Notes: generated by a model not told the origin, from the letters alone. Shown: positions 43,249-54,114, counted from the stretch's first letter. The stretch: DNA of 64,000 nucleotides from Mollicutes bacterium (GCA_012837765.1 DUQO01000018.1:16014-80013), one strand, 5' to 3'. Numbers and translations: made by a program.

Positions 43249-44199
43249 GTGATGCTTATGAAACAAATAATTTATATTTCACTGCTTCTTATAGCTATTC
43301 CTTTTTTTATTGTCATAATATCATCTTTTGAGGGAGAAATACCAAAAGATGAACAAAAGGAACTAGAAGTTGAAGAAAAAGTATATGTTAGATTAAAAAG
43401 AGAAAAAACAGGAAATATAGAAAAAATAGAATTAGAAGAATATGTGTTGGGAGTATTAGCTGGAGAAATGCCAGTATCTTTTCATATTGAAGCTTTAAAA
43501 GCACAAGCTGTAGCATCACGAAGTTATGTTTTGAAAAGATTAAAATACAACAAAGAAAATGATTATGATGTAGTTGATAGTGTAACAAATCAAGTATATT
43601 TAGATAATTCATATTTAGAAGAAAAATGGTTAGATAAATATAATGAAAATATTGCAAAATTAAAAAAAGCAGTGACTGAAACAAAATTAGAATGTATTTT
43701 TTATGAAGGAGAAATAGCAGATGCTCTTTTTTTCTCTACTAGTAATGGTTTTACAGAAAATAGTGAAGAGATATTTAATAATACTGTTCCATATTTAAGA
43801 AGTGTTGAATCAGTATGGGATGAAAAAACATCTCCTGTTTTTAATGATCAAAAGACATATAACAAAAATGATTTTTATAATATGTTAGGAATAAAAAAGA
43901 GTAAAAAATTAGAAACTAGAATAACTGAGTATTCTGATTCCGGCCGTATAGTAAAAATAAAAATAAATGGTATTGAAATGAAAGGTTCAGATGTAAGAAC
44001 TAAATTAGGTTTAAGATCAACAGATTTTCAAATACAAGAAGAAGGTGAAAAAATAATTATAAAAACTAGCGGATTTGGTCATGGAGTTGGTATGAGTCAA
44101 TATGGAGCTTTAGGAATGGCTAATGAAGGATATAAATATGATGAAATATTAAAATATTATTATCAAGGAATAAGCATTAATAAATATAAAAATAAATAA
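43249..44199 (+). CDS. spoIID: Stage II sporulation protein D (SpoIID/LytB amidase enhancer)
   Basis: YVLGVLAGEMPVSFHIEALKAQAVASRSY matches the SpoIID signature. Confidence 0.85.
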   Translation: MMLMKQIIYISLLLIAIPFFIVIISSFEGEIPKDEQKELEVEEKVYVRLKREKTGNIEKIELEEYVLGVLAGEMPVSFHIEALKAQAVASRSYVLKRLKYNKENDYDVVDSVTNQVYLDNSYLEEKWLDKYNENIAKLKKAVTETKLECIFYEGEIADALFFSTSNGFTENSEEIFNNTVPYLRSVESVWDEKTSPVFNDQKTYNKNDFYNMLGIKKSKKLETRITEYSDSGRIVKIKINGIEMKGSDVRTKLGLRSTDFQIQEEGEKIIIKTSGFGHGVGMSQYGALGMANEGYKYDEILKYYYQGISINKYKNK

Positions 44200-44258
44200 C
44201 TTAATTTTTTTTGTATATTATTCTCATTATTGTTAAAACTCTTAATGAGGTGATATAT

Positions 44259-44894
44259 ATGACACATAAAAGGAAGTTAAAACCCTTTGTAATTCCTATG
44301 CTTTATAGTATTGCTTTTTTAGCTTTTGTAATAAGTTTGTTTTTCTTACGTGAAGCCTTAAACATGCCTGTTTTTGATGAAGATGATGATTATACTTATG
44401 TAAGTAAAACAATTTTTGATGATGATGTTCCTGTTGTTGGTAATACAAAAAGTATTATAAGACCATACAAAGATAGTGAAATAAAAATATTAAAGTATTT
44501 TTATGATAAAGATGCCGAAGTAGATAAACAAAAAGAATCAATTATTTTTTATGAAAACATCTATATGCCTAATTCTGGTGTTGATTATGGGGGAAAAGAA
44601 AATTTTGAAGTTGTTTCCATATTGGATGGAACTGTAATAGATGTAAAAGAAGATGATTTGTTAGGAAAGATAGTAGAAATTAGACATAGTAATGAAATGA
44701 TAAGCGTTTATCAAAGTTTATCTGAGGTTACGGTTAAAAAACAGGATACTGTTTCACAAGGTCAGATAATTGGAAAAAGTGGAACTTGTAATATTTTACC
44801 AGACTTAAAAGATCATCTTCATTTAGAAATAATTTTTAACGGTAAAGTAATTGATCCAGAAAAAGCATTTGATAAAACTATAAAAGATTTATAA
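44259..44894 (+). CDS. spoIIQ: Stage II sporulation protein Q-like M23/LytM-domain membrane protein
   Basis: IVEIRHSNEMISVYQSLSEVTVKKQDTVSQGQIIGKSG matches B. subtilis SpoIIQ VVEVEHADGLSTVYQSLSEVSVEQGDKVKQNQVIGKSG. Retains HLHLEI. N-terminal TM. Start at MTHKRK with RBS GAGGTGA. Confidence 0.75.
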   Translation: MTHKRKLKPFVIPMLYSIAFLAFVISLFFLREALNMPVFDEDDDYTYVSKTIFDDDVPVVGNTKSIIRPYKDSEIKILKYFYDKDAEVDKQKESIIFYENIYMPNSGVDYGGKENFEVVSILDGTVIDVKEDDLLGKIVEIRHSNEMISVYQSLSEVTVKKQDTVSQGQIIGKSGTCNILPDLKDHLHLEIIFNGKVIDPEKAFDKTIKDL

Positions 44895-44963
44895 GGCAGG
44901 AATGCCTTTTTTTATGAATAAAAAGGTTTAAAATTTATATACTTTAACAAGAGAGGTGAGGCA

Positions 44964-45221
44964 GTGAAGAGTGACATTTTAAAAAGGGTTTTAGATGAGG
45001 CTTTTCATATTATTAATACAGAAGACACTATTAGAAATATAGCTAAAGTATTTAATGTAAGTAAAAGTACGGTGCATAAGGATTTGAATGAAAGATTATA
45101 TCAAATTGATGTTAAATTACATGAGAAAGTATCAGAAATTTTAAAGCATCATATAGAAGTTAGACATTTAAGAGGTGGGGAATCTACAAGACAAAAATAT
45201 TTAAAAATAAACAACTCCTAA
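44964..45221 (+). CDS. spoIIID: Stage III sporulation protein D
   Basis: VSKSTVHKDLNERL and VRHLRGGEST match SpoIIID GVSKSTVHKDLTERL and IRHLRGGEAT. Confidence 0.85.
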   Translation: MKSDILKRVLDEAFHIINTEDTIRNIAKVFNVSKSTVHKDLNERLYQIDVKLHEKVSEILKHHIEVRHLRGGESTRQKYLKINNS

Positions 45222-45294
45222 TAATAATTGCAAAAAATATGATAGAATATATATATAGATAATACACAGTTACATTTATAGAAGGGATGGTAGT

Positions 45295-46290
45295 ATGTTT
45301 AATAAGGATATAGGTATTGATTTAGGAACAGCAAATGTGTTGGTTTATGTAAAAGGACAAGGTATCGTTTTAAACGAACCTAGTGTTGTTGCAATTGATT
45401 CAGAAACAAAAAAACCTCTTACTGTAGGTACAGAAGCTCATGAAATGTTAGGAAGAACTCCAGGTAAAGTAAAAGCAATTAAACCGATGAAAGAAGGAGT
45501 TATTGCTGATTTTGAAATAACAGAAATAATGTTAAATTACTTTATAAAAAAAATAAAAGGTAAAAATATTTTTTCTCGTCCACGTATTCTTATTTGTTGT
45601 CCAGCTAATATAACGCAAGTTGAAAAAAATGCTATTAAAGAAGCAGCAGAAAGAACAGGAGCAAGAAGAGTATATCTTGAAGAAGAACCAAAAGTAGCGG
45701 CTGTAGGAGCAGGACTTGATATTGCCAAACCAAGCGGAAATATGGTTATTGATATAGGTGGTGGAACAACAGATATAGCAGTATTATCATTAGGAGGTAT
45801 TGTAAATAGTGCATCGATAAGGATAGCAGGAAATACTTTTGATAACGATATTGCAAAATATATAAAAGACAAATATAAATTATTGATTGGTGAAAGAACA
45901 GCTGAAGAAATAAAAATTAGAATAGGAACGGTTGCAAAAGGAAGTAAAAAAGAAAAAATGGATGTCCGTGGAAGGGATTTGGTAACTGGACTTCCACATA
46001 GTGTAACAATAACATCAGAAGAAATGGAAGAAACTTTAAGAAAAAGTGTCTATGAAATAATAAAGGTAACAAAAACAGTATTAGAGCAAACACCACCAGA
46101 ATTATCGGCAGATATAATCGATAAAGGAATTGTTATAACTGGTGGAGGTGCATTGATTGATGGATTTGATACATTATTAGCACAAGAATTAAAAGTACCA
46201 GTTTTTATAGCTGAAAGTCCTTTAACATGTGTAGTAGAAGGAACAGGAATTATGTTAGATAATTTACATCTTCTCGATAATTATTTATAA
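45295..46290 (+). CDS. mbl: Actin-like rod-shape protein Mbl/MreB
   Basis: DLGTANVLVYVKGQGIVLNEPSVVA; position after spoIIID. Confidence 0.85.
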   Translation: MFNKDIGIDLGTANVLVYVKGQGIVLNEPSVVAIDSETKKPLTVGTEAHEMLGRTPGKVKAIKPMKEGVIADFEITEIMLNYFIKKIKGKNIFSRPRILICCPANITQVEKNAIKEAAERTGARRVYLEEEPKVAAVGAGLDIAKPSGNMVIDIGGGTTDIAVLSLGGIVNSASIRIAGNTFDNDIAKYIKDKYKLLIGERTAEEIKIRIGTVAKGSKKEKMDVRGRDLVTGLPHSVTITSEEMEETLRKSVYEIIKVTKTVLEQTPPELSADIIDKGIVITGGGALIDGFDTLLAQELKVPVFIAESPLTCVVEGTGIMLDNLHLLDNYL

Positions 46291-46297
46291 TTAGACA

Positions 46298-46326
46298 AAG
46301 AGGTCGTTTTTCCTCTTTTTTTTGAT
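46298..46326 (+). terminator. Terminator after mbl
   Basis: AAAGAGG-tcgttttt-CCTCTTT followed by a T-run. Confidence 0.6.
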
Positions 46327-46374
46327 GCAAAAAAAAAGACGTATGATATAATTGTTTTGGAAGGTGGATAAGAA

Positions 46375-47427
46375 ATGAAGTATGATTTAAAACAGGTTTT
46401 AATTATTTTGACCGTAACTTTTACTTTTACTATGTTAATAGTACCAATAATTAAAAAAATCTCATTACATATTGGTGCAGTAGATAGGCCTAATGAAAGA
46501 AGAATAAATAAAAAAGATATGCCAAATCTTGGAGGATTAGCCATTTTTGCTGGTTTTTTACTAGGTTATATTTTATTTTGTGAACAAACAGTTATTATGA
46601 ATTCTGTTTTAGTTGGAGGTTTTATTCTAATTATTACAGGAATGATTGATAGTATTAATTCTCTTAAAGCAAGATATCAATTTTTTGCTCATTTACTATC
46701 GGCTTTCATTGTTGTTTTTTATGGGGGATTGTCACTTAATGTAATAGATGCCTTTGGATATACTATTAATTTTGGGATTTTTTCATATCCAATAACTATA
46801 TTTTTTATAGTAGGTATGATAAATGTCATCAATCTTATAGATGGGCTTGATGGCTTAGCTTCAGGTATATCTTCCATTTTCTTTTTAACGATTGGAATCA
46901 TAGCATTTATTATGAATAAAATAGGAGGCCTTGATATAGCTCTTTCATTTGTTATGTTAGGTTCAACACTAGGTTTTCTAGTTCATAATTTTTATCCTGC
47001 TAAAATATATATGGGTCAATCAGGATCTATGTTTTTAGGATATATTATAGCAGTAATAGCTTTATTAGGTTTTAAAAATGTTACATTAACTTCTTTTCTT
47101 GTTCCTATATTAATAATGGCAATACCAATAATAGACACTTTTTTTGCTATTTTAAGAAGAATAATAAATAAGCAGTCTATAGCTTCTGCTGACAAACAAC
47201 ATTTACATCATCAATTGTTAAAAATGAACTTTTCTCATAGAACAACAGTACTTATAATCTATTATATAGATGCCTTATTTGCTTTTGCATCTATTGTATA
47301 TGTTTTAAAAGATGCAAAATTAGGAATCTTTCTTTATGTAATACTTCTCATAATAGTAATATGGTTTGTTGTAACAACTAACATCATTATAAATAGGGAA
47401 AAACCTAAAAAAAATGCGCGTAAGTAA
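46375..47427 (+). CDS. tagO: UDP-GlcNAc:undecaprenyl-phosphate GlcNAc-1-phosphate transferase (WecA/TagO, GT4 MraY-like)
   Basis: NVINLIDGLDGLASG motif, about 10 TM. Confidence 0.8.
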   Translation: MKYDLKQVLIILTVTFTFTMLIVPIIKKISLHIGAVDRPNERRINKKDMPNLGGLAIFAGFLLGYILFCEQTVIMNSVLVGGFILIITGMIDSINSLKARYQFFAHLLSAFIVVFYGGLSLNVIDAFGYTINFGIFSYPITIFFIVGMINVINLIDGLDGLASGISSIFFLTIGIIAFIMNKIGGLDIALSFVMLGSTLGFLVHNFYPAKIYMGQSGSMFLGYIIAVIALLGFKNVTLTSFLVPILIMAIPIIDTFFAILRRIINKQSIASADKQHLHHQLLKMNFSHRTTVLIIYYIDALFAFASIVYVLKDAKLGIFLYVILLIIVIWFVVTTNIIINREKPKKNARK

Positions 47428-47578
47428 AATAAAAATAAGGTGTTTTATGTCTAATTATTATTATTAACAATTATCAAAAAATAAGATTACTAAATAAGAT
47501 TGTTATCTTTCATACTATGAAAAAATCAAATAAAATGTTATAATGTAAACGAATAGTTAATAGTAAAGGAGTATACTT

Positions 47579-48295
47579 ATGCTTCATTTTGTAATCTTTG
47601 ATGACAATGAGTTGATAAGAGAAAAAGTAAACAAAGTAATAACTAAATTAATGTTACCGACGGATATAGAATATAAAACGTTGGAATTTTCCAAATACAA
47701 TAAAAGTTTTGCTCAATTGATAGAAAGAAGAGGAGAAAAGAAAATATATATATTAGATATAGAAGTAGATTCTTACTCTGGTTTGGATGTTGCAAGAAAA
47801 ATAAGAGAGAGAGATTGGGAAAGCATTATAATAGTTTTAACAGCACATTATGAACTTGCATATGATGCCTTTAAAAATAGACTAATGTTGTTAGATTTTA
47901 TTTCAAAATTTGATAATTATGAACAAAATTTATATGATGTTTTAAAATTAGCATTAAAAGCATCACATGTTAAAAAACAATTTTCTTTTACTTCCAATAG
48001 AATGGCATATAGGGTTGATTACGATGATATTTTATATATTATCAAGGATACAGCAAAAAGAAATACAATTGTTAAAACTTTTTCTAAAGAATACCCTGTA
48101 TCACTTAACTTAAATGAAATAATGGCAATGTTGCCAGATAATTTTATTCAAACACATAGAGCATGTACAATTAATAGGGATAATGTAAAAACAATTGATT
48201 TTAAAGAAAACATTATAACATTTATTAATAATGAAAAAATATCAATGTTATCAAAAACATATAAGAAAGAAGTGAAAGAACATGTCTTTAGTTGA
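47579..48295 (+). CDS. LytTR-family response regulator (AgrA-like)
   Basis: Receiver with phospho-acceptor Asp in YILDIEVDS. C-terminal LytTR module ...ILYIIKDTAKRNTIV...QTHRACTIN. Confidence 0.8.
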   Translation: MLHFVIFDDNELIREKVNKVITKLMLPTDIEYKTLEFSKYNKSFAQLIERRGEKKIYILDIEVDSYSGLDVARKIRERDWESIIIVLTAHYELAYDAFKNRLMLLDFISKFDNYEQNLYDVLKLALKASHVKKQFSFTSNRMAYRVDYDDILYIIKDTAKRNTIVKTFSKEYPVSLNLNEIMAMLPDNFIQTHRACTINRDNVKTIDFKENIITFINNEKISMLSKTYKKEVKEHVFS

Positions 48296-49595
48296 TTTGA
48301 TTGGCCCCTCTTTTATCTTCAACATATTTCAACTAAAACTATCATCTGTAATAATAAAAGAAAAAATAGACTTTAAAAACGGAAAAAACATATTTTTATT
48401 TATACTTTTAATAGTAATGCTTTCCTTTTCAACTTTAGTTTTTAATAATTTTTTACGAGTGGTATTCAATTTCTTATGTTTGCTCTTTTTCTATTATTTT
48501 ATTCATAACAAAGGAATAAATGTAGCATTTATCGTTTCGTTTATTGCCTTCTTTTTATTTTTTATGTCAGAAATAATATTTTCTTCAATGTTATACTTTG
48601 TTAGTCAAATATGGGATATATCTATTGATATTGAAAAAAATACATTGCTATATTTAATATCAAATATATCAATTGGTTTTATGGCTATTATAATATATCG
48701 AATAAAAAAAATAAAACAAATTATTTTTACTTTGATTAAAAATTATGAAAAAACCAAATTTACTAAAACCATGTTGATAATACTAATGTTAATTTTTGTA
48801 TTAGTAAATAAAAATTTTTTATTGTTTGATTTTTATTTTGATTATCTTTTGAATCTATTTATTGTAGCGTTATTTTGCTTAATAGCTTATTTATTATTAA
48901 AGGAAAAAAATGCAAATGTGTCATTATCTAAAAAATATGATCAACTGTTTAGTTATTTAGAAAATTATGAAAAAGAACTTAATAAAAAAAGTATAATAAT
49001 TCATGAATTTAATAATCAACTAATTGCTATAAAAGGATTCAATGATAAGAAAAATAAGCATTTAGAACAATACCTAAATTCTATAATTAAAGATAATCAA
49101 AAGGGTGGAGAAAAGTTTCTTGATGATATGGAAAACCTTCCAAAGGGAGGATTAAAAGGATTAATTTATTATAAATTAGGATATCTGAAAGATGAAGGAA
49201 TTAATGTTGTAACTGATATTAGTTCAACTGTTAGAAAAAATGCCTTCGCTAAATTTGATCCTTCTTTATATAGAGATATTTTAAAAATAGTAGGTGTGTT
49301 GTTAGATAATGCTGTAGAGGCTGCAAAAGAATCAAAAGAAAAGCAAATATCATTAGAAATCTTTTGTACTAAAAATGATTTTAATATTGTATTATCTAAT
49401 ACCTTTTGTAATAATATTGATCTTGAAAAAATAGATGAATCAAAATATTCGACAAAAGGTAAGGATAGGGGATATGGACTTGCATTAGTAAAGCAAATAG
49501 TTAAAGATAATCCTAAATTGCAAGTTAAAAAAGAAATAATTAATAATTTCTTTGTTTCGACATTAACAATTGAACTAAAAAACACTTCTAATTAG
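48282..49595 (+). CDS. AgrC-like (HPK10) membrane sensor histidine kinase
   Basis: Six N-terminal TM helices, H-box IIIHEFNNQLIAIKG, GHKL motifs LLDNAVEA and GYGLALV. Confidence 0.7.
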   Translation: MSLVDLIGPSFIFNIFQLKLSSVIIKEKIDFKNGKNIFLFILLIVMLSFSTLVFNNFLRVVFNFLCLLFFYYFIHNKGINVAFIVSFIAFFLFFMSEIIFSSMLYFVSQIWDISIDIEKNTLLYLISNISIGFMAIIIYRIKKIKQIIFTLIKNYEKTKFTKTMLIILMLIFVLVNKNFLLFDFYFDYLLNLFIVALFCLIAYLLLKEKNANVSLSKKYDQLFSYLENYEKELNKKSIIIHEFNNQLIAIKGFNDKKNKHLEQYLNSIIKDNQKGGEKFLDDMENLPKGGLKGLIYYKLGYLKDEGINVVTDISSTVRKNAFAKFDPSLYRDILKIVGVLLDNAVEAAKESKEKQISLEIFCTKNDFNIVLSNTFCNNIDLEKIDESKYSTKGKDRGYGLALVKQIVKDNPKLQVKKEIINNFFVSTLTIELKNTSN

Positions 49596-49611
49596 ATAGA
49601 AGTGTTTTTTA
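49578..49611. terminator. Bidirectional terminator between the convergent kinase and agrD
   Basis: Perfect 13-bp inverted repeat AAAAACACTTCTA / TAGAAGTGTTTTT. Confidence 0.65.
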
Positions 49612-49616
49612 GATTA

Positions 49617-49751
49617 TTATTCTATTATTGATTTTGGTGCTTCTGGTTCATCAAACCAAAAAAGAATGCATCCAACATGAGCAGCATTAGAAGCAAGTAA
49701 GCCAACTACTGCTGCAAAGCGTCCTATAATCTTTAGTGTCCTCTTTTTCAT
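49617..49751 (-). CDS. agrD: AgrD-like autoinducing peptide precursor (44 aa)
   Basis: My translation MKKRTLKIIGRFAAVVGLLASNAAHVGCILFWFDEPEAPKSIIE: amphipathic leader, conserved Cys, C-terminal DEPEAPK tail (compare S. aureus ...CDFIMDEVEVPKEL). RBS GGGAGGAATATT. Below the ORF-track cutoff. Confidence 0.7.
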   Translation of the reverse strand: MKKRTLKIIGRFAAVVGLLASNAAHVGCILFWFDEPEAPKSIIE

Positions 49752-49784
49752 AATATTCCTCCCTTCTCATTCTTTATCAAATCA

Positions 49785-50390
49785 TCATTTTTTTTGATGA
49801 TATGATTTGTAGTTGTTATATGGTAAATTTAGTAATCTATATGAAATGGGTATTATTAGTAAAGATTCAATTACTAATGAAAATATAAGGCAATTTGATA
49901 CTAAGTTATTGCTTATAAAAAATGACAACAAACCATAAAAAATAGCTGTCAAAGAAGAAAGTAATTTATATTTTTTTCTTCTTTTTTTATTTATTAGTGG
50001 TCGTTTATGAGTGTCTGCAGGAGCATATAAAATAATAATAATAAAGCAAATAATAAAAATTAATATTTTTATAAATAAATTTATTACTAATACTGAGGCT
50101 AAATAAGATGTAAAAATAAAAACACTACCAGATAAAAACAAACAAATTCTGCTATTAGGAGCATGCAATCCAAAAGCATATAATCTAATACCACTAAATA
50201 TAATTGTTAATAACAAAAATTCTTTTAAAAGATTTAGAAAAAAACTGACTGTAACAAAAAGTATTGTTTTTCCAAGTAACAAGTATATTGCTTCTAAACC
50301 ATAACTAATTTTTTCGATATGTATATTGTTGTATGAGTTGTCATTTTTTTCTATCACCATAAGTAACTTATTTATAACTGCATTTTTCAT
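49785..50390 (-). CDS. agrB: AgrB-like membrane peptidase/cyclase
   Basis: Catalytic region FGLHAPNSRICLF (His/Cys) and YAPADTHKRP, 201 aa polytopic membrane protein. Confidence 0.8.
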   Translation of the reverse strand: MKNAVINKLLMVIEKNDNSYNNIHIEKISYGLEAIYLLLGKTILFVTVSFFLNLLKEFLLLTIIFSGIRLYAFGLHAPNSRICLFLSGSVFIFTSYLASVLVINLFIKILIFIICFIIIILYAPADTHKRPLINKKRRKKYKLLSSLTAIFYGLLSFFISNNLVSNCLIFSLVIESLLIIPISYRLLNLPYNNYKSYHQKK

Positions 50391-50404
50391 TAACTTCGCT
50401 CCCT

Positions 50405-50481
50405 ATTATAATAATTTTATCTTTTTTTCAAACATAATTTTTTTCAAGCGCTTGAAAAGTGTTAGTAAATGTTTGAAATGA
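50405..50481 (-). promoter_or_regulatory. agrB promoter with LytTR-type direct repeats
   Basis: 9-bp repeats TTGAAAAGT (50452-60) and TTGAAATGA (50473-81) separated by exactly 12 bp, upstream of a TTGAAA..TATAAT promoter with 15-16 bp spacing. Confidence 0.55.
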
Positions 50482-50695
50482 AGAAAAAGGGCCAATCAAA
50501 TATGTCGAAAGTCATTTTATGTCAAAAAAAAGGCGTTTTGTGTTTTGTTTAGTTTTTAAAAGTCTTAATTTATTAGAATATAATAGTAAATTAGTTATTA
50601 TGCGCAATAAATGTCACAATTTGTATTACTGCTTTTGTTGAAAAGCATAATTGTGTGAGTTATAGTGGTATTGTAAGGTTTTACTAGAAGGTGAG

Positions 50696-50920
50696 GTGCA
50701 AGAGGTGGTCGGAAAAGTAAAATGGTTTAATAATGAAAAGGGATATGGATTTATTGACTACTTAGAAGGTGAAGATATCTTTGTTCATTACAGCAACATT
50801 AAGCAAGAAGGCTTTAAAACTCTTTGTGAAGGACAAATGGTTAAATTTGATTTAATTCACACGGAAAAAGGACTACAAGCGATAAATGTTGAAAACGTTA
50901 ATGTAGCTACCGTTGTATAG
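50696..50920 (+). CDS. Cold-shock protein (CspA family)
   Basis: [18 protein letters not shown] motifs. GTG start after AGGTGAGGTG. Confidence 0.85.
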
Positions 50921-50997
50921 GTAGTTTTTTTTTAGATTTAATATTTGTAATTAATGTATTAAATGTTATAATTAATTTATAGAATGGAGGTATATAT

Positions 50998-51528
50998 ATG
51001 AAAATAGAAATTCGTGGCGACAAACTTTTAATCACAAAAGCAATTAAAAATTACATTGAAGAAAAGTTGAGTAAGCTAGACAAATATTTTAAAAAACCGG
51101 AAAATATTACCGCTAAAATAACACTTAAAGTAAGAGGGAGAAGCAAAATTATAGAGGTAACTATACCACTAAATTCTTTTATATTACGTAATGAAGAAGA
51201 ACATGGCGATTTATATGCCGCTATTGATCTTGTAGTTGATAAATTAGAAAGGCAAGTTGTAAAAAATAAAACTAAAATTAAAAGTAAACCATTAAAGTCA
51301 AAGAACATTGAAATCATCTTTGAGGATGAAGAAGAGGTTTTAGAAAAACCAGAAGTAATAGTAAAAAGGAAAAAATTAGAAATGAAACCAATGAGTGAAG
51401 AAGAAGCAATTTTGCAAATGAATTTATTGAATCATGATTTCTTTATTTTCAAAGATGCTGAAACAAATCACATTCATGTTTTGTATAAAAGAAAAGATGG
51501 AAATTATGGAATAATAGAAACAAAATAG
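50998..51528 (+). CDS. hpf: Ribosome hibernation promoting factor, long form
   Basis: MKIEIRGDKLLITKAIKNYIEEKL... with C-terminal dimerisation domain. hpf-secA-prfB synteny as B. subtilis yvyD-secA-prfB. Confidence 0.85.
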   Translation: MKIEIRGDKLLITKAIKNYIEEKLSKLDKYFKKPENITAKITLKVRGRSKIIEVTIPLNSFILRNEEEHGDLYAAIDLVVDKLERQVVKNKTKIKSKPLKSKNIEIIFEDEEEVLEKPEVIVKRKKLEMKPMSEEEAILQMNLLNHDFFIFKDAETNHIHVLYKRKDGNYGIIETK

Positions 51529-51548
51529 AATAAGATTATTATAATTAA

Positions 51549-51575
51549 AATCACACAAATCGTGTGATTTTTCTC
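51549..51575 (+). terminator. Terminator after hpf
   Basis: AATCACAC-aaatc-GTGTGATT followed by a T5 run. Confidence 0.6.
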
Positions 51576-51609
51576 TTAGATATGATACAATATTATATGA
51601 CTTGAGAGG

Positions 51610-54114
51610 ATGATGAAAATGGGTTTTCTTAAAAGTGTTTTTAATCATGAATACAGGGAACTAAAAAAATTTAATGCTATTGCTACTAAAGTAGATGAGT
51701 TAGATAGTGTTATGCAGAAACTATCTGATTATGAATTAAAGGCTAAAACAAATGAATTTAAAGAGAGATTGGCAAATGGTGAAACACTAGATGATTTATT
51801 AGTTGAAGCTTTTGCGGTAGTAAGAGAAGCGGCGTTTCGTACTATAAAAGAAAAACCATATTTTGTACAAATTTTAGGTGGTATTACAATTCACTATGGT
51901 AATATTGCTGAAATGAAAACAGGTGAAGGAAAAACCTTATCTTTAACAATGCCTGCTTATTTAAATGCATTAACAGGTGAGGGTGTACATGTTATTACAG
52001 TAAACGAATATCTAGCTAGTTTTCATGCTGGATGGATGGGACAAATATTTGAATTTCTTGGTTTAACTGTAGGTGTTAATTTACGAGAATTAGACTTTGA
52101 AGAAAAGAAAAATGTATACAATTGCGATATCATGTATACAACAAATAGTGAGTTAGGTTTTGACTATTTAAGAGATAACATGGTAGTAAATAAAGAAAGA
52201 AGAGTTCAAAGAGGACTCAATTTTGCAATCGTTGACGAGGTTGACTCAATTTTAATAGATGAAGCACGTACTCCACTAATAATTTCTGGTGGCTACATGA
52301 AATCTTTAAATTTATACAAAGATGCTGATATGTTTGCAAAAACATTGCGTGAAAATGAAGGTTATATAAAAGATGAAAAAACCAATGCTATTAGTTTAAC
52401 AGAAGAAGGTTCAATCAAAGCTGAAAATTATTTTAAAATTGAAAACTTATATGATATTAAACATTCAGCTCTAGTTCATCATATAAACCAAGCTATTAAA
52501 GCTAATTTTGGTATGAAAAAAGATGTGGATTATGTTGTACAAGATGACGAAGTGGTAATAGTAGATCAATTTACCGGACGTCTAATGAAAGGACGAGCTT
52601 TTAGTGAGGGATTACATCAAGCTATAGAAGCAAAAGAAGGAGTAACAATAAAAGAAGAAACTCGTACTTTAGCAACAATTACTTTTCAGAATTTATTTAG
52701 AATGTATAAAAAGTTATCAGGTATGACTGGTACTGCAAAAACAGAAGAAGAGGAATTTAGAAACATATATAACATGTATGTTATTCAAATACCTACAAAT
52801 AGACCAGTTATAAGAAAAGACTTGCCAGATTTAATATATACAAACAAAGAAGGAAAATACAATGCAATTATTCGTGTTATACAAGAATGTTATAAAAATG
52901 GTCAACCAGTTTTAGTAGGAACTATTGCTATTGAAACAAGTGAACTTATTAGCAATACGTTACGAAAAAAGAAAATACCACATGAAGTATTAAATGCTAA
53001 AAACCACGCGAGAGAAGCTGAAATTATAGCTAAAGCAGGAGAAAAAGGTGCAGTTACTATTGCAACTAACATGGCTGGTCGTGGAACGGATATCAAATTA
53101 GGAGAAGGAGTTAAGGAACTAGGTGGTTTATTTGTTATAGGTACTGAACGTCATGAATCAAGACGTATTGATAACCAATTAAGAGGTCGTGCAGGACGTC
53201 AAGGAGACCCTGGCGTTTCCCAATTCTTTGTCTCGTTAGAAGATGATATCATGGTTCGTTTTGGTTCTGATAGAATTAAAGGAATGATGCAGTCTTTAGG
53301 TTTTGGTGGGGATCAAGCAATTCGTAGTAAGATGTTTACAAATGCTATGGAAACAGCCCAAAAGAGAGTAGAAGGATATAACTTTGATATTAGAAAACAA
53401 TTACTTCAATATGATGATGTCATGAACAGACAAAGAGAAATAATATATGAAAAAAGAAATAGTATTTTAGATGAAGATTCAATTCATGACTATATATTGA
53501 AAAGTATAATGGATTATATAGAAAGATTAGTATTTAGTCATTTAATAGAAGAAAAAGTATTAACATTAAACGATAAATCAGAGATTATTGAAGCTGTAAA
53601 TGAAAATTTATTAAAGAACGACAGAATGTCAGTTGATGATATAAAAGAAGATGATGAAAATACAATAGTAAGAAAAATATATGAAAAAGTAATACATGAT
53701 TATGAGCAAAAAATAAAAGATCTGCCAAATGATATAATCAACGATTTTGAAAAAGCAATTCATTTAAATGTTATCGATAGACATTGGATGGAACATATTA
53801 ATACAATGGAACATTTAAGAGAAGGAATAGGTTTAAGGGGTTACGCTCAAGAAAACCCTCTTCAAGCTTATGTTTCAGAAGGATTTGCTCTATTTGAAGA
53901 AATGTTAGCTAGAATTGATGAACAAACAACAATATATATATTGAAGGCAGAAATAAAACAAAATTTAGAGACTAAAGAAGTTGCAAATATAGCTACTAAT
54001 GAAGATAAGAGTAAAACAATAAAGAGACAACCAAAAAAAGTAAATAAGATAGGAAGAAATGAGCCTTGCCCATGTGGCAGTGGCAAGAAGTATAAACAAT
54101 GTTGTGGTAAATAA
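51610..54114 (+). CDS. secA: Preprotein translocase ATPase SecA
   Basis: 834 aa with DEAD-motor motifs and the C-terminal zinc motif CPCGSGKKYKQCCGK. Confidence 0.95.
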   Translation: MMKMGFLKSVFNHEYRELKKFNAIATKVDELDSVMQKLSDYELKAKTNEFKERLANGETLDDLLVEAFAVVREAAFRTIKEKPYFVQILGGITIHYGNIAEMKTGEGKTLSLTMPAYLNALTGEGVHVITVNEYLASFHAGWMGQIFEFLGLTVGVNLRELDFEEKKNVYNCDIMYTTNSELGFDYLRDNMVVNKERRVQRGLNFAIVDEVDSILIDEARTPLIISGGYMKSLNLYKDADMFAKTLRENEGYIKDEKTNAISLTEEGSIKAENYFKIENLYDIKHSALVHHINQAIKANFGMKKDVDYVVQDDEVVIVDQFTGRLMKGRAFSEGLHQAIEAKEGVTIKEETRTLATITFQNLFRMYKKLSGMTGTAKTEEEEFRNIYNMYVIQIPTNRPVIRKDLPDLIYTNKEGKYNAIIRVIQECYKNGQPVLVGTIAIETSELISNTLRKKKIPHEVLNAKNHAREAEIIAKAGEKGAVTIATNMAGRGTDIKLGEGVKELGGLFVIGTERHESRRIDNQLRGRAGRQGDPGVSQFFVSLEDDIMVRFGSDRIKGMMQSLGFGGDQAIRSKMFTNAMETAQKRVEGYNFDIRKQLLQYDDVMNRQREIIYEKRNSILDEDSIHDYILKSIMDYIERLVFSHLIEEKVLTLNDKSEIIEAVNENLLKNDRMSVDDIKEDDENTIVRKIYEKVIHDYEQKIKDLPNDIINDFEKAIHLNVIDRHWMEHINTMEHLREGIGLRGYAQENPLQAYVSEGFALFEEMLARIDEQTTIYILKAEIKQNLETKEVANIATNEDKSKTIKRQPKKVNKIGRNEPCPCGSGKKYKQCCGK

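Follow-up and report, generated by a model that had tools for sequence, protein, structure and literature searches.

The locus at positions 47579-50481 of a 64,000-nucleotide (nt) stretch of DNA from a Mollicutes bacterium (GCA_012837765.1 DUQO01000018.1:16014-80013; this whole stretch is hereafter called the window) raises the question of whether four genes arranged as two converging pairs form a working agr-type quorum-sensing system, and which of the two pairs is under feedback control. A preliminary description placed a LytTR response regulator and an AgrC-type kinase on the plus strand, facing agrD and agrB on the minus strand. These assignments and the coordinates of the open reading frames (ORFs) were borne out by ORF calls and profile searches. 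Its end coordinate, 50481, is the outer edge of a repeat pair (50448-50481) and not a gene boundary. Judged from the sequence and its relatives, an intact, functional agr-type autoinducing-peptide system in two convergent operons is quite probable. Autoinduction is probably confined to signal production, the receptor arm being constitutive.

Organization of the locus

Gene agrA (47579-48295, plus strand) encodes a response regulator of 238 residues with a receiver (REC) and a LytTR DNA-binding domain. The end of agrA is overlapped over 14 nt by agrC (48282-49595, plus strand), which encodes a sensor histidine kinase of 437 residues. The regulator gene thus lies before the kinase gene, as had been described. 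On the minus strand, agrB (49785-50390) encodes a membrane endopeptidase/cyclase of 201 residues with catalytic His76 and Cys83. The start of agrD (49617-49751, minus strand; precursor peptide of 44 residues) is 33 nt downstream of the agrB stop codon. The agrA-agrC and agrD-agrB pairs converge, all four ORFs are full length and each is preceded by a plausible ribosome-binding site (GGGAGG for agrD). The separate transcription claimed for the processing genes agrees with this convergent two-operon organization, which is real and has a bidirectional terminator between the operons.

The proposed hidden Markov model check was run: PF04647, PF04397 and HATPase_c_5 all matched, as did the AgrD model TIGR04223. 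The possibility that agrB and agrD were pseudogenes was also checked. Profile matches, the invariant AgrB His76/Cys83 and clade-wide protein lengths show that they are not, and none of the four genes is decayed. No second agr copy was found in the window using phmmer, and no AgrB relative was found in a phage collection.

For comparison, nine loci from metagenomes or metagenome-assembled genomes (MAGs) were fetched via AgrB homologues (44-52% identity). All have the same layout and mostly the same neighbourhood as the window: spoIIID, mreB and a glycosyltransferase 4 (GT4) gene, then agr (agrA agrC > < agrD agrB), then csp-hpf-secA. A scan with an AgrB alignment against one genome per bacterial species gave at least 569 matching stretches, and the best 80 loci were examined. 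Of 89 related loci, each one long enough to show it has the order AgrB> AgrD> <AgrC <AgrA, and adjacency and order were kept across AgrB identities of 36-62%. In about 80 species, the lengths of AgrB, AgrD, AgrC and AgrA were stable at approximately 200, 40, 435 and 238 residues. Because layout and protein lengths are conserved, the four genes are evidently maintained as a unit. Judged from this conservation, the convergent layout is an old, vertically kept trait of the lineage. The AgrB of the window itself had no match in the contig index, so the context was taken from relatives.

Signal synthesis arm

AgrB matched PF04647 (3.1e-32; cut-off 23) and NF002210 (2.4e-37) in profile searches. In an alignment of 32 sequences, residues H76, C83, R69, G74 and P124 were invariant, the catalytic His and Cys being 7 residues apart. 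Several hydrophobic segments were seen in the hydropathy profile. An NCBI MAG protein labelled 'Mollicutes bacterium' and named accessory regulator AgrB has the same sequence (100% identity). A solved-structure search with AgrB gave no meaningful match.

AgrD scored 25.6 bits with TIGR04223 (cut-off 19). Its sequence is MKKRTLKIIGRFAAVVGLLASNAAHVG-CILFWF-DEPEAPKSIIE, with a predicted six-residue thiolactone core from Cys28 to Phe33. Approximately 70 AgrD sequences of the clade were compared, and in nearly all of them the Cys precedes a conserved DEPExPKSLI tail by exactly 6 residues (clade-wide motif C-x5-DEPExPKSLI); the exceptions are a few sequences with seven residues, one with Ser and one with Thr. 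The core is CMLFWF in the closest relative and CAFFWF in another. We take AgrB to cut directly before a [D/Y/H]-E/Q-P motif, an assumption made from a by-eye alignment of published autoinducing peptides (AIPs) to their precursors. Because AgrB cuts just before this motif in characterised systems, the macrocycle is predicted to be C-I-L-F-W-F. The core had been described as CILFW(F), leaving two ring sizes: the six-residue CILFWF is more likely on this alignment, and the five-residue CILFW was set aside.

Variants of the signal arm were observed in three related loci. In L044, Thr replaces Cys/Ser in AgrD (…EKA-TPWLWF-DEPE…) and the neighbouring AgrC is split into ORFs of 113 and 309 residues; either decay of the locus or a fault in the assembly would explain this. 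L024 has two agrD copies in tandem, their cores differing (CIVLWI and CMLLWL). In L031, an agrB fragment/agrD is duplicated and three AgrC-like ORFs are found. The last two loci suggest local duplication and diversification of signal and receptor.

Sensing arm

AgrA matched LytTR (PF04397, 5.7e-17) and Response_reg (PF00072, 8e-08, above cut-off) in a profile search, and its best NCBIfam match was AgrA (2.9e-15). In the PDB, it matched ComE (1.5e-09) and the LytTR domain of S. aureus AgrA (3e-08). The acceptor Asp60 is within the motif YILDI, the acceptor-Asp motif of AgrA. AgrA was the sole LytTR protein detected in the window using phmmer.

AgrC matched HATPase_c_5 (PF14501, 1.5e-12), with a GHKL ATPase at residues 332-430. 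About six hydrophobic segments were found by hydropathy between residues 36 and 206. The top solved-structure match was the kinase module of S. aureus AgrC (9.7e-11). His241, within HEFNNQL, aligns with the His of the phospho-acceptor region of S. aureus AgrC ('iihefnnql' versus 'frhdyvnil').

Identity to the closest relatives was 78-81% for AgrA. For AgrC, it was 42-51% in the sensor half and 60% in the kinase half. AgrA is thus the most conserved, and the AgrC sensor half has diverged faster than the kinase half. Such identities are typical of agr, in which signal and receptor evolve rapidly beside a regulator that changes little.

Terminator between the operons

A bidirectional intrinsic terminator is predicted at 49575-49612 (both strands). 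It consists of an A-tract, a perfect 16-bp stem, a 6-nt loop and a T-tract. It overlaps the last agrC codons, and the agrC stop codon sits in the loop. The perfect stem, its position between the stop codons and its bidirectional character agree with the preliminary description; the stem length given there, 13 bp, is corrected to 16 bp. Folding energies (RNAfold) were -19.5 kcal/mol for the plus transcript and -21.4 kcal/mol for the minus transcript. A terminator scan found three terminator-like sites in the 3.5-kb region against 0.4 expected. Of 64 related loci, 58 have an equivalent A-tract/stem/T-tract hairpin (z < -2) separating the stop codons of agrD and agrC.

Predicted AgrA site and promoters

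Two 13-nt direct repeats with a 21-bp period, directed towards agrB, are found at 50448-50481 (minus strand) and read TCATTTCAAACAT-N8-ACTTTTCAAGCGC on that strand. Repeat pairs were scored with an iteratively refined position weight matrix (PWM) with the half-site TCATTTCAGACAA. The pair scored 22.8, the next best pair in the window scoring 14; shuffled windows contained 4-9 pairs at 12 or more and none near 22.8. Published AgrA sites consist of direct repeats of about 9 bp, spaced by 12-13 bp and located upstream of the promoter (PMC4227749; PMC5600425), with the consensus [TA][AC][CA]GTTN[AG][TG] (PMC5600425). The half-site core TCATTTCAG fits this consensus at 8 of 9 positions, and the spacing of the window pair equals the published one.

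The arrangement recurs in relatives. Repeats with a 21-bp period (at least 9/10 matches) were found upstream of agrB in 19 of 84 loci, against 2.4 in shuffles, and other periods were at background. Among the 43 pairs scoring at least 16 in 860 kb of related loci, 39 were within 260 nt upstream of agrB; four were expected by chance anywhere. A -10-like hexamer begins 28-29 nt past the pair for all 15 agrB-directed pairs and for 36 of 42 pairs directed towards the divergent gene csp, every other offset reaching at most 7/42. In the window, a putative -10 hexamer of the agrB-agrD promoter, TAAAAT (50414-50419, minus strand), starts 28 nt downstream of the pair. The predicted agrB 5' untranslated region is about 17 nt long, including an AGGGAG ribosome-binding site. 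The closest relatives, L098 and L099, likewise have one pair, in the position seen in the window, and TAAAAT at the same offset. The pair at 50448-50481 is therefore predicted, in silico, to be an AgrA site that activates the agrBD promoter, which would make signal synthesis autoinduced.

A putative sigma-A promoter of agrA-agrC was located at 47517-47544 (plus strand), with a -35-like ATGAAA, a 16-nt spacer and the extended -10 TGtTATAAT (47536-47544). It matched the consensus at 10 of 12 positions, plus the TG, in a consensus scan. In the PWM scan, no repeat pair scoring at least 3 was found upstream of agrA in 47428-47578. Upstream of agrA in 72 related loci, no pair scored at least 12 and no repeat period was enriched. 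A AATAAGATT repeat with a 13-nt period, noted upstream of agrA by eye, was dropped given the lack of an enriched period and of PWM pairs in these 72 loci. Because the agrAC promoter is strong, has an extended -10 and lacks regulator boxes, the receptor arm is probably constitutive.

Several points weigh against an autoinduced system of the agr type. Scores are inflated because the PWM was trained on the very family in which pairs were then counted; the enrichment at period 21 was obtained without it. An agrB-directed pair scoring at least 12 is present in only 21 of 84 related loci, and autoinduction of agrBD may thus not be universal in the clade. The proposed agrBD promoter has a poor -35 region and its transcription start is predicted only. 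The staphylococcal equivalog models gave 56.5 bits for AgrA (NF046049, cut-off 400) and 56 bits for AgrC (NF046015, cut-off 500). With scores so far below the cut-offs, both proteins must be regarded as remote members of their families, to which neither ligand nor DNA specificity can be transferred. No CPBP/MroQ-like second protease was found within the window using phmmer (CPBP is the family of MroQ, the S. aureus AIP-maturation protease). Peptide, transcripts and AgrA binding are all predictions, and the organism is uncultured.

The first two of these points, the family-trained matrix and the minority of loci with a pair, would also suit a real agr system in which 50448-50481 is a chance pair or the site of another regulator, the operons being constitutive or otherwise controlled and not directly autoinduced. 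The window is 72% A+T, in which T/A-rich repeats arise easily, and one half-site lies inside a palindrome (50441-50458) that could serve a dimeric regulator. This explanation is unlikely, given the gap between the score of the pair and that of the next best in 64 kb, the 21-bp periodicity obtained independently of the PWM, and the distance to agrB and the 28-nt offset to the -10, both the same as in relatives. The resemblance of the core to the published LytTR/AgrA consensus, with AgrA the sole LytTR protein detected in the window, also argues for an AgrA site.

If 50448-50481 is an AgrA site, as we prefer, it links the two arms. This bears on the proposal that the operons are not cognate, AgrCA sensing the peptide of others (eavesdropping) or a non-peptide cue and AgrBD making a peptide for interference against competitors. 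The transcriptional independence of the operons is in its favour, and there are precedents: orphan agrBD and separate receptors occur in clostridia, e.g. C. difficile agr1 and C. perfringens agrBD (PMC3754575, PMC12312760), and AIPs from the gut reportedly affect other species (PMC11953309). Besides the predicted site, the adjacency and order of the four genes in every sufficiently long related locus, over the full range of AgrB identities, point the other way. So does the rapid divergence of the AgrC sensor half and AgrD core beside a conserved AgrA, the pattern of a co-evolving ligand and receptor. We consider non-cognate operons very unlikely.

The repeat motif was first read as TTGTCTGAAATG towards agrB. 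This orientation implied that distal pairs (-155..-120) drive agrB via a long leader and that the window pair is 'inverted', and a first -10 search (at least 5/6 match) made with it gave no peak. It was rejected on three grounds: the reverse complement, TCATTTCAG, fits the published LytTR/AgrA consensus orientation; the flipped reading gives the sharp -10 peak 28-29 nt downstream for both pair classes; and the window arrangement is common to the closest relatives.

The palindrome at 50441-50458, TTTTCAAGCGCTTGAAAA, is perfect over 18 bp and overlaps one repeat half-site. A role as operator or RNA hairpin was considered and rejected: the half-site with flanking A/T accounts for the palindrome, no T-tract follows, and its sequence is not conserved in relatives. 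A different palindrome, GACCTTTTAAAGGTC, was observed in L003 at a similar distance from agrB.

Four pairs scoring 17-23 were located outside the agrB upstream region (L038:8879-8912, L024:5687-5720, L053:1478-1511 and L017:9843-9876), four being expected by chance. The one in L038 is found directly past agrA, from which it points away, and could mark a further target gene.

Repeat pairs facing csp

A second repeat pair, facing the divergent cold-shock gene csp, was found in 47 of 84 related loci. It is located at about -155..-120 from the agrB start (e.g. L010, L045, L086 and L049), often with the -10 TGGTAAAAT. In many loci, both pairs are present, usually back to back and approximately 30 bp apart. 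In the window (50482-50695) and its nearest relatives, no csp-directed pair was found in the PWM scan; there, csp has a conserved TTGAAA-17-TATAGT promoter. A degenerate csp-directed pair around 50511-50544 in the window was discarded (score below 5, wrong distance from any -10).

A conserved ATGTCG(A/G)AA element is found in many relatives within the csp-side leader, some 20 nt past the csp-directed -10. In the window, the element (50503-50512, plus strand) is directly beside the agrB-directed repeat pair, which suggests that the subclade of the window has lost or replaced the stretch holding the boxes and -10 of the csp side.

The AgrA sites of the S. aureus P2 and P3 promoters are separated by a 31-bp spacer (PMC5600425), to which the spacing of the back-to-back pairs of relatives is similar. 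In species with a csp-directed pair, csp or its leader may be a direct AgrA target. A wider reading is that agr is a vertically inherited core feature fixed beside csp-hpf-secA and that the agrB-csp region is a P2/P3-like bidirectional AgrA switch, whose 'P3' side drives csp (an RNA chaperone) or a leader of about 100 nt instead of RNAIII. We hold this reading tentatively, as somewhat more doubtful than probable. Under it, the subclade of the window would be in a derived state, with the agrBD-side pair only and csp transcribed from its own promoter.

Decay in relatives and genomic context

Truncated regulators were observed in a few relatives. The most abundant relative, a single species (L007:7085-7519/L008) whose AgrB occurs in 88 contig-collection blocks, has a regulator of 144 residues with a weak receiver match, no LytTR and no room for a LytTR domain before the next gene. 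The L081 regulator has 158 residues. None of these loci has a repeat pair upstream of agrB, which suggests that the DNA-binding output of the system was lost in them.

Such decay in relatives (regulators of 144-158 residues without LytTR in L007/L008 and L081, split AgrC and AgrD Thr in L044) would be in line with the window locus being itself a relic, decaying or silent, that has ceased to signal. That is hardly probable for the window, where ORFs are full length and catalytic residues, ribosome-binding sites, promoter elements, terminator and repeat pair are intact.

SpoIID-like, SpoIIID and MreB/Mbl proteins are encoded beside the locus (window 43249-47427; flank 50696-54114). Because of the 27.6% G+C and the presence of spoIID, spoIIID and mreB, the organism is taken to be a low-GC gut Bacillota bearing sporulation genes and not a classical mollicute. 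Labels of the best 80 loci were Bacilli, Tenericutes, Clostridium sp. CAG:594 or CAG:762, or Candidatus Coprosoma; a circular genome of 1.2 Mb is among them. Because the labels of related genomes vary (Bacilli, Tenericutes, Clostridium, Erysipelotrichaceae, even Muribaculaceae or Ignavibacteriales), the taxonomic labels of this lineage are unreliable.

Proposed mechanism and significance

By homology with known systems, agrB-agrD would be transcribed from the minus strand and AgrB (His76/Cys83) would remove the acidic AgrD tail DEPEAPKSIIE and cyclise Cys28 onto Phe33, giving the six-residue thiolactone C-I-L-F-W-F. A separate protease would then trim the N-terminal leader of AgrD. If no exocyclic tail is left, the thiolactone would convert to a head-to-tail cyclic hexapeptide, as in Ruminiclostridium cellulolyticum. 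The agrA-agrC operon would be transcribed constitutively from the plus strand. Binding of the extracellular peptide to the polytopic AgrC sensor would lead to phosphorylation of His241 and transfer of the phosphate to Asp60 of AgrA. As sequence statistics suggest, phosphorylated AgrA would bind the 50448-50481 repeats and activate the agrBD promoter 28 nt downstream, a positive feedback loop acting on signal synthesis only. The shared hairpin would terminate both operons and prevent antisense read-through. As to the regulon, control of sporulation or of other density-dependent traits is a guess made by analogy with clostridial systems.

What is added here is the six-residue ring prediction, the lineage-wide synteny and a predicted AgrA site on the agrBD but not the agrAC promoter. 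The C-I-L-F-W-F core is one more predicted AIP for the growing catalogue of gut Bacillota signals, and a complete agr system is retained at one chromosomal site throughout an uncultured lineage with reduced genomes. On sequence statistics, feedback restricted to the signal arm and an insulating terminator would give the split layout a functional reading. Signal-arm-only autoinduction, and relatives wiring the same boxes to a cold-shock gene, are of specialist interest. In practice the gain is modest: chemical synthesis of so short a peptide is feasible, and the predicted regulator site is a ready reporter design. Since the organism is uncultured, synthetic-peptide and heterologous approaches are the only route.

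Comparison with known agr systems

The locus shares with S. aureus agr the four protein families, the AgrB His/Cys, the AgrC phospho-acceptor His, the AgrA acceptor Asp and a pair of approximately 9-bp direct repeats with a 21-bp period upstream of the agrB/agrD promoter. In S. aureus, agrBDCA is transcribed from P2 and RNAIII divergently from P3, whereas the window has two convergent operons with agrA before agrC. With a box-less agrA promoter in the window, no autoinduction of the receptor arm is predicted, and the ring is expected to comprise six residues instead of five. The window does not have one co-directional agrBDCA operon under common autoinduction: a terminator separates two convergent operons, and no repeat pair lies upstream of agrA. 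Nor was an RNAIII-like second AgrA-dependent promoter found in the window, which has no csp-directed pair; no RNAIII or other Rfam family was found in 46000-52000 at E up to 1, a scope in which a lineage-specific RNA is possible.

The agr genes of Clostridium acetobutylicum, which are co-directional in the order B-D-C-A, differ from those of the window, where the operons converge and the sensing order is A-C. Both have separate units for synthesis and sensing, and some clostridial rings have six residues, e.g. the C. acetobutylicum AIP CVLVTL (PMC12312760, PMC3754575). The Rc-AIP1 peptide of R. cellulolyticum (CWFWSY) likewise has a Cys and five hydrophobic or aromatic residues and comes from a sporulating Bacillota. 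It differs in that it was found experimentally to be a tail-less thiolactone, rearranged to a homodetic cyclopeptide controlling sporulation (PMC8251862), whereas the window peptide is a prediction from the gene.

C. difficile R20291 agr2, listed in the order agrA, agrC, agrD, agrB (PMC3754575; PMC8534292), also has the regulator before the kinase, the reverse of S. aureus. Its authors suggest a single agrACDB transcript, implying one strand; in the window, the processing genes lie on the other strand and agrB precedes agrD.

From the annotated plasmid-borne agr loci retrieved with the window AgrB, eight were sampled. Two of them, in Alkaliphilus sp. B6464 (pB6464) and C. tagluense (pCM022-183), share the layout of the window, B> D> <C <A, including a regulator gene that precedes the kinase gene and overlaps it. 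The other layouts were co-directional B-D-C-A (2/8), A> C> <D B> (3/8) and <A D> B> C> (1/8). The Alkaliphilus and C. tagluense loci differ from the window in AgrB (35-40% identity), in class (Clostridia), in being plasmid-borne and in lying outside a csp-hpf-secA context. In Clostridium estertheticum plasmids (L094, L096 and L097), a CPBP-family intramembrane protease gene abuts agrB, and a non-ribosomal peptide synthetase gene is next in L094.

Literature searches gave no explicit description of the convergent agrBD/agrAC layout, and the precedent is in these annotated plasmid records. Gene order in agr is fluid, and the window variant is already present in RefSeq annotations. The contrast originally drawn with S. 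aureus implied an unusual layout and used the wrong yardstick: in clostridia, agrBD and agrCA are often already separate operons (PMC12312760). The locus is an ordinary member of the well-known agr family, whose split convergent layout recurs elsewhere and is not new.

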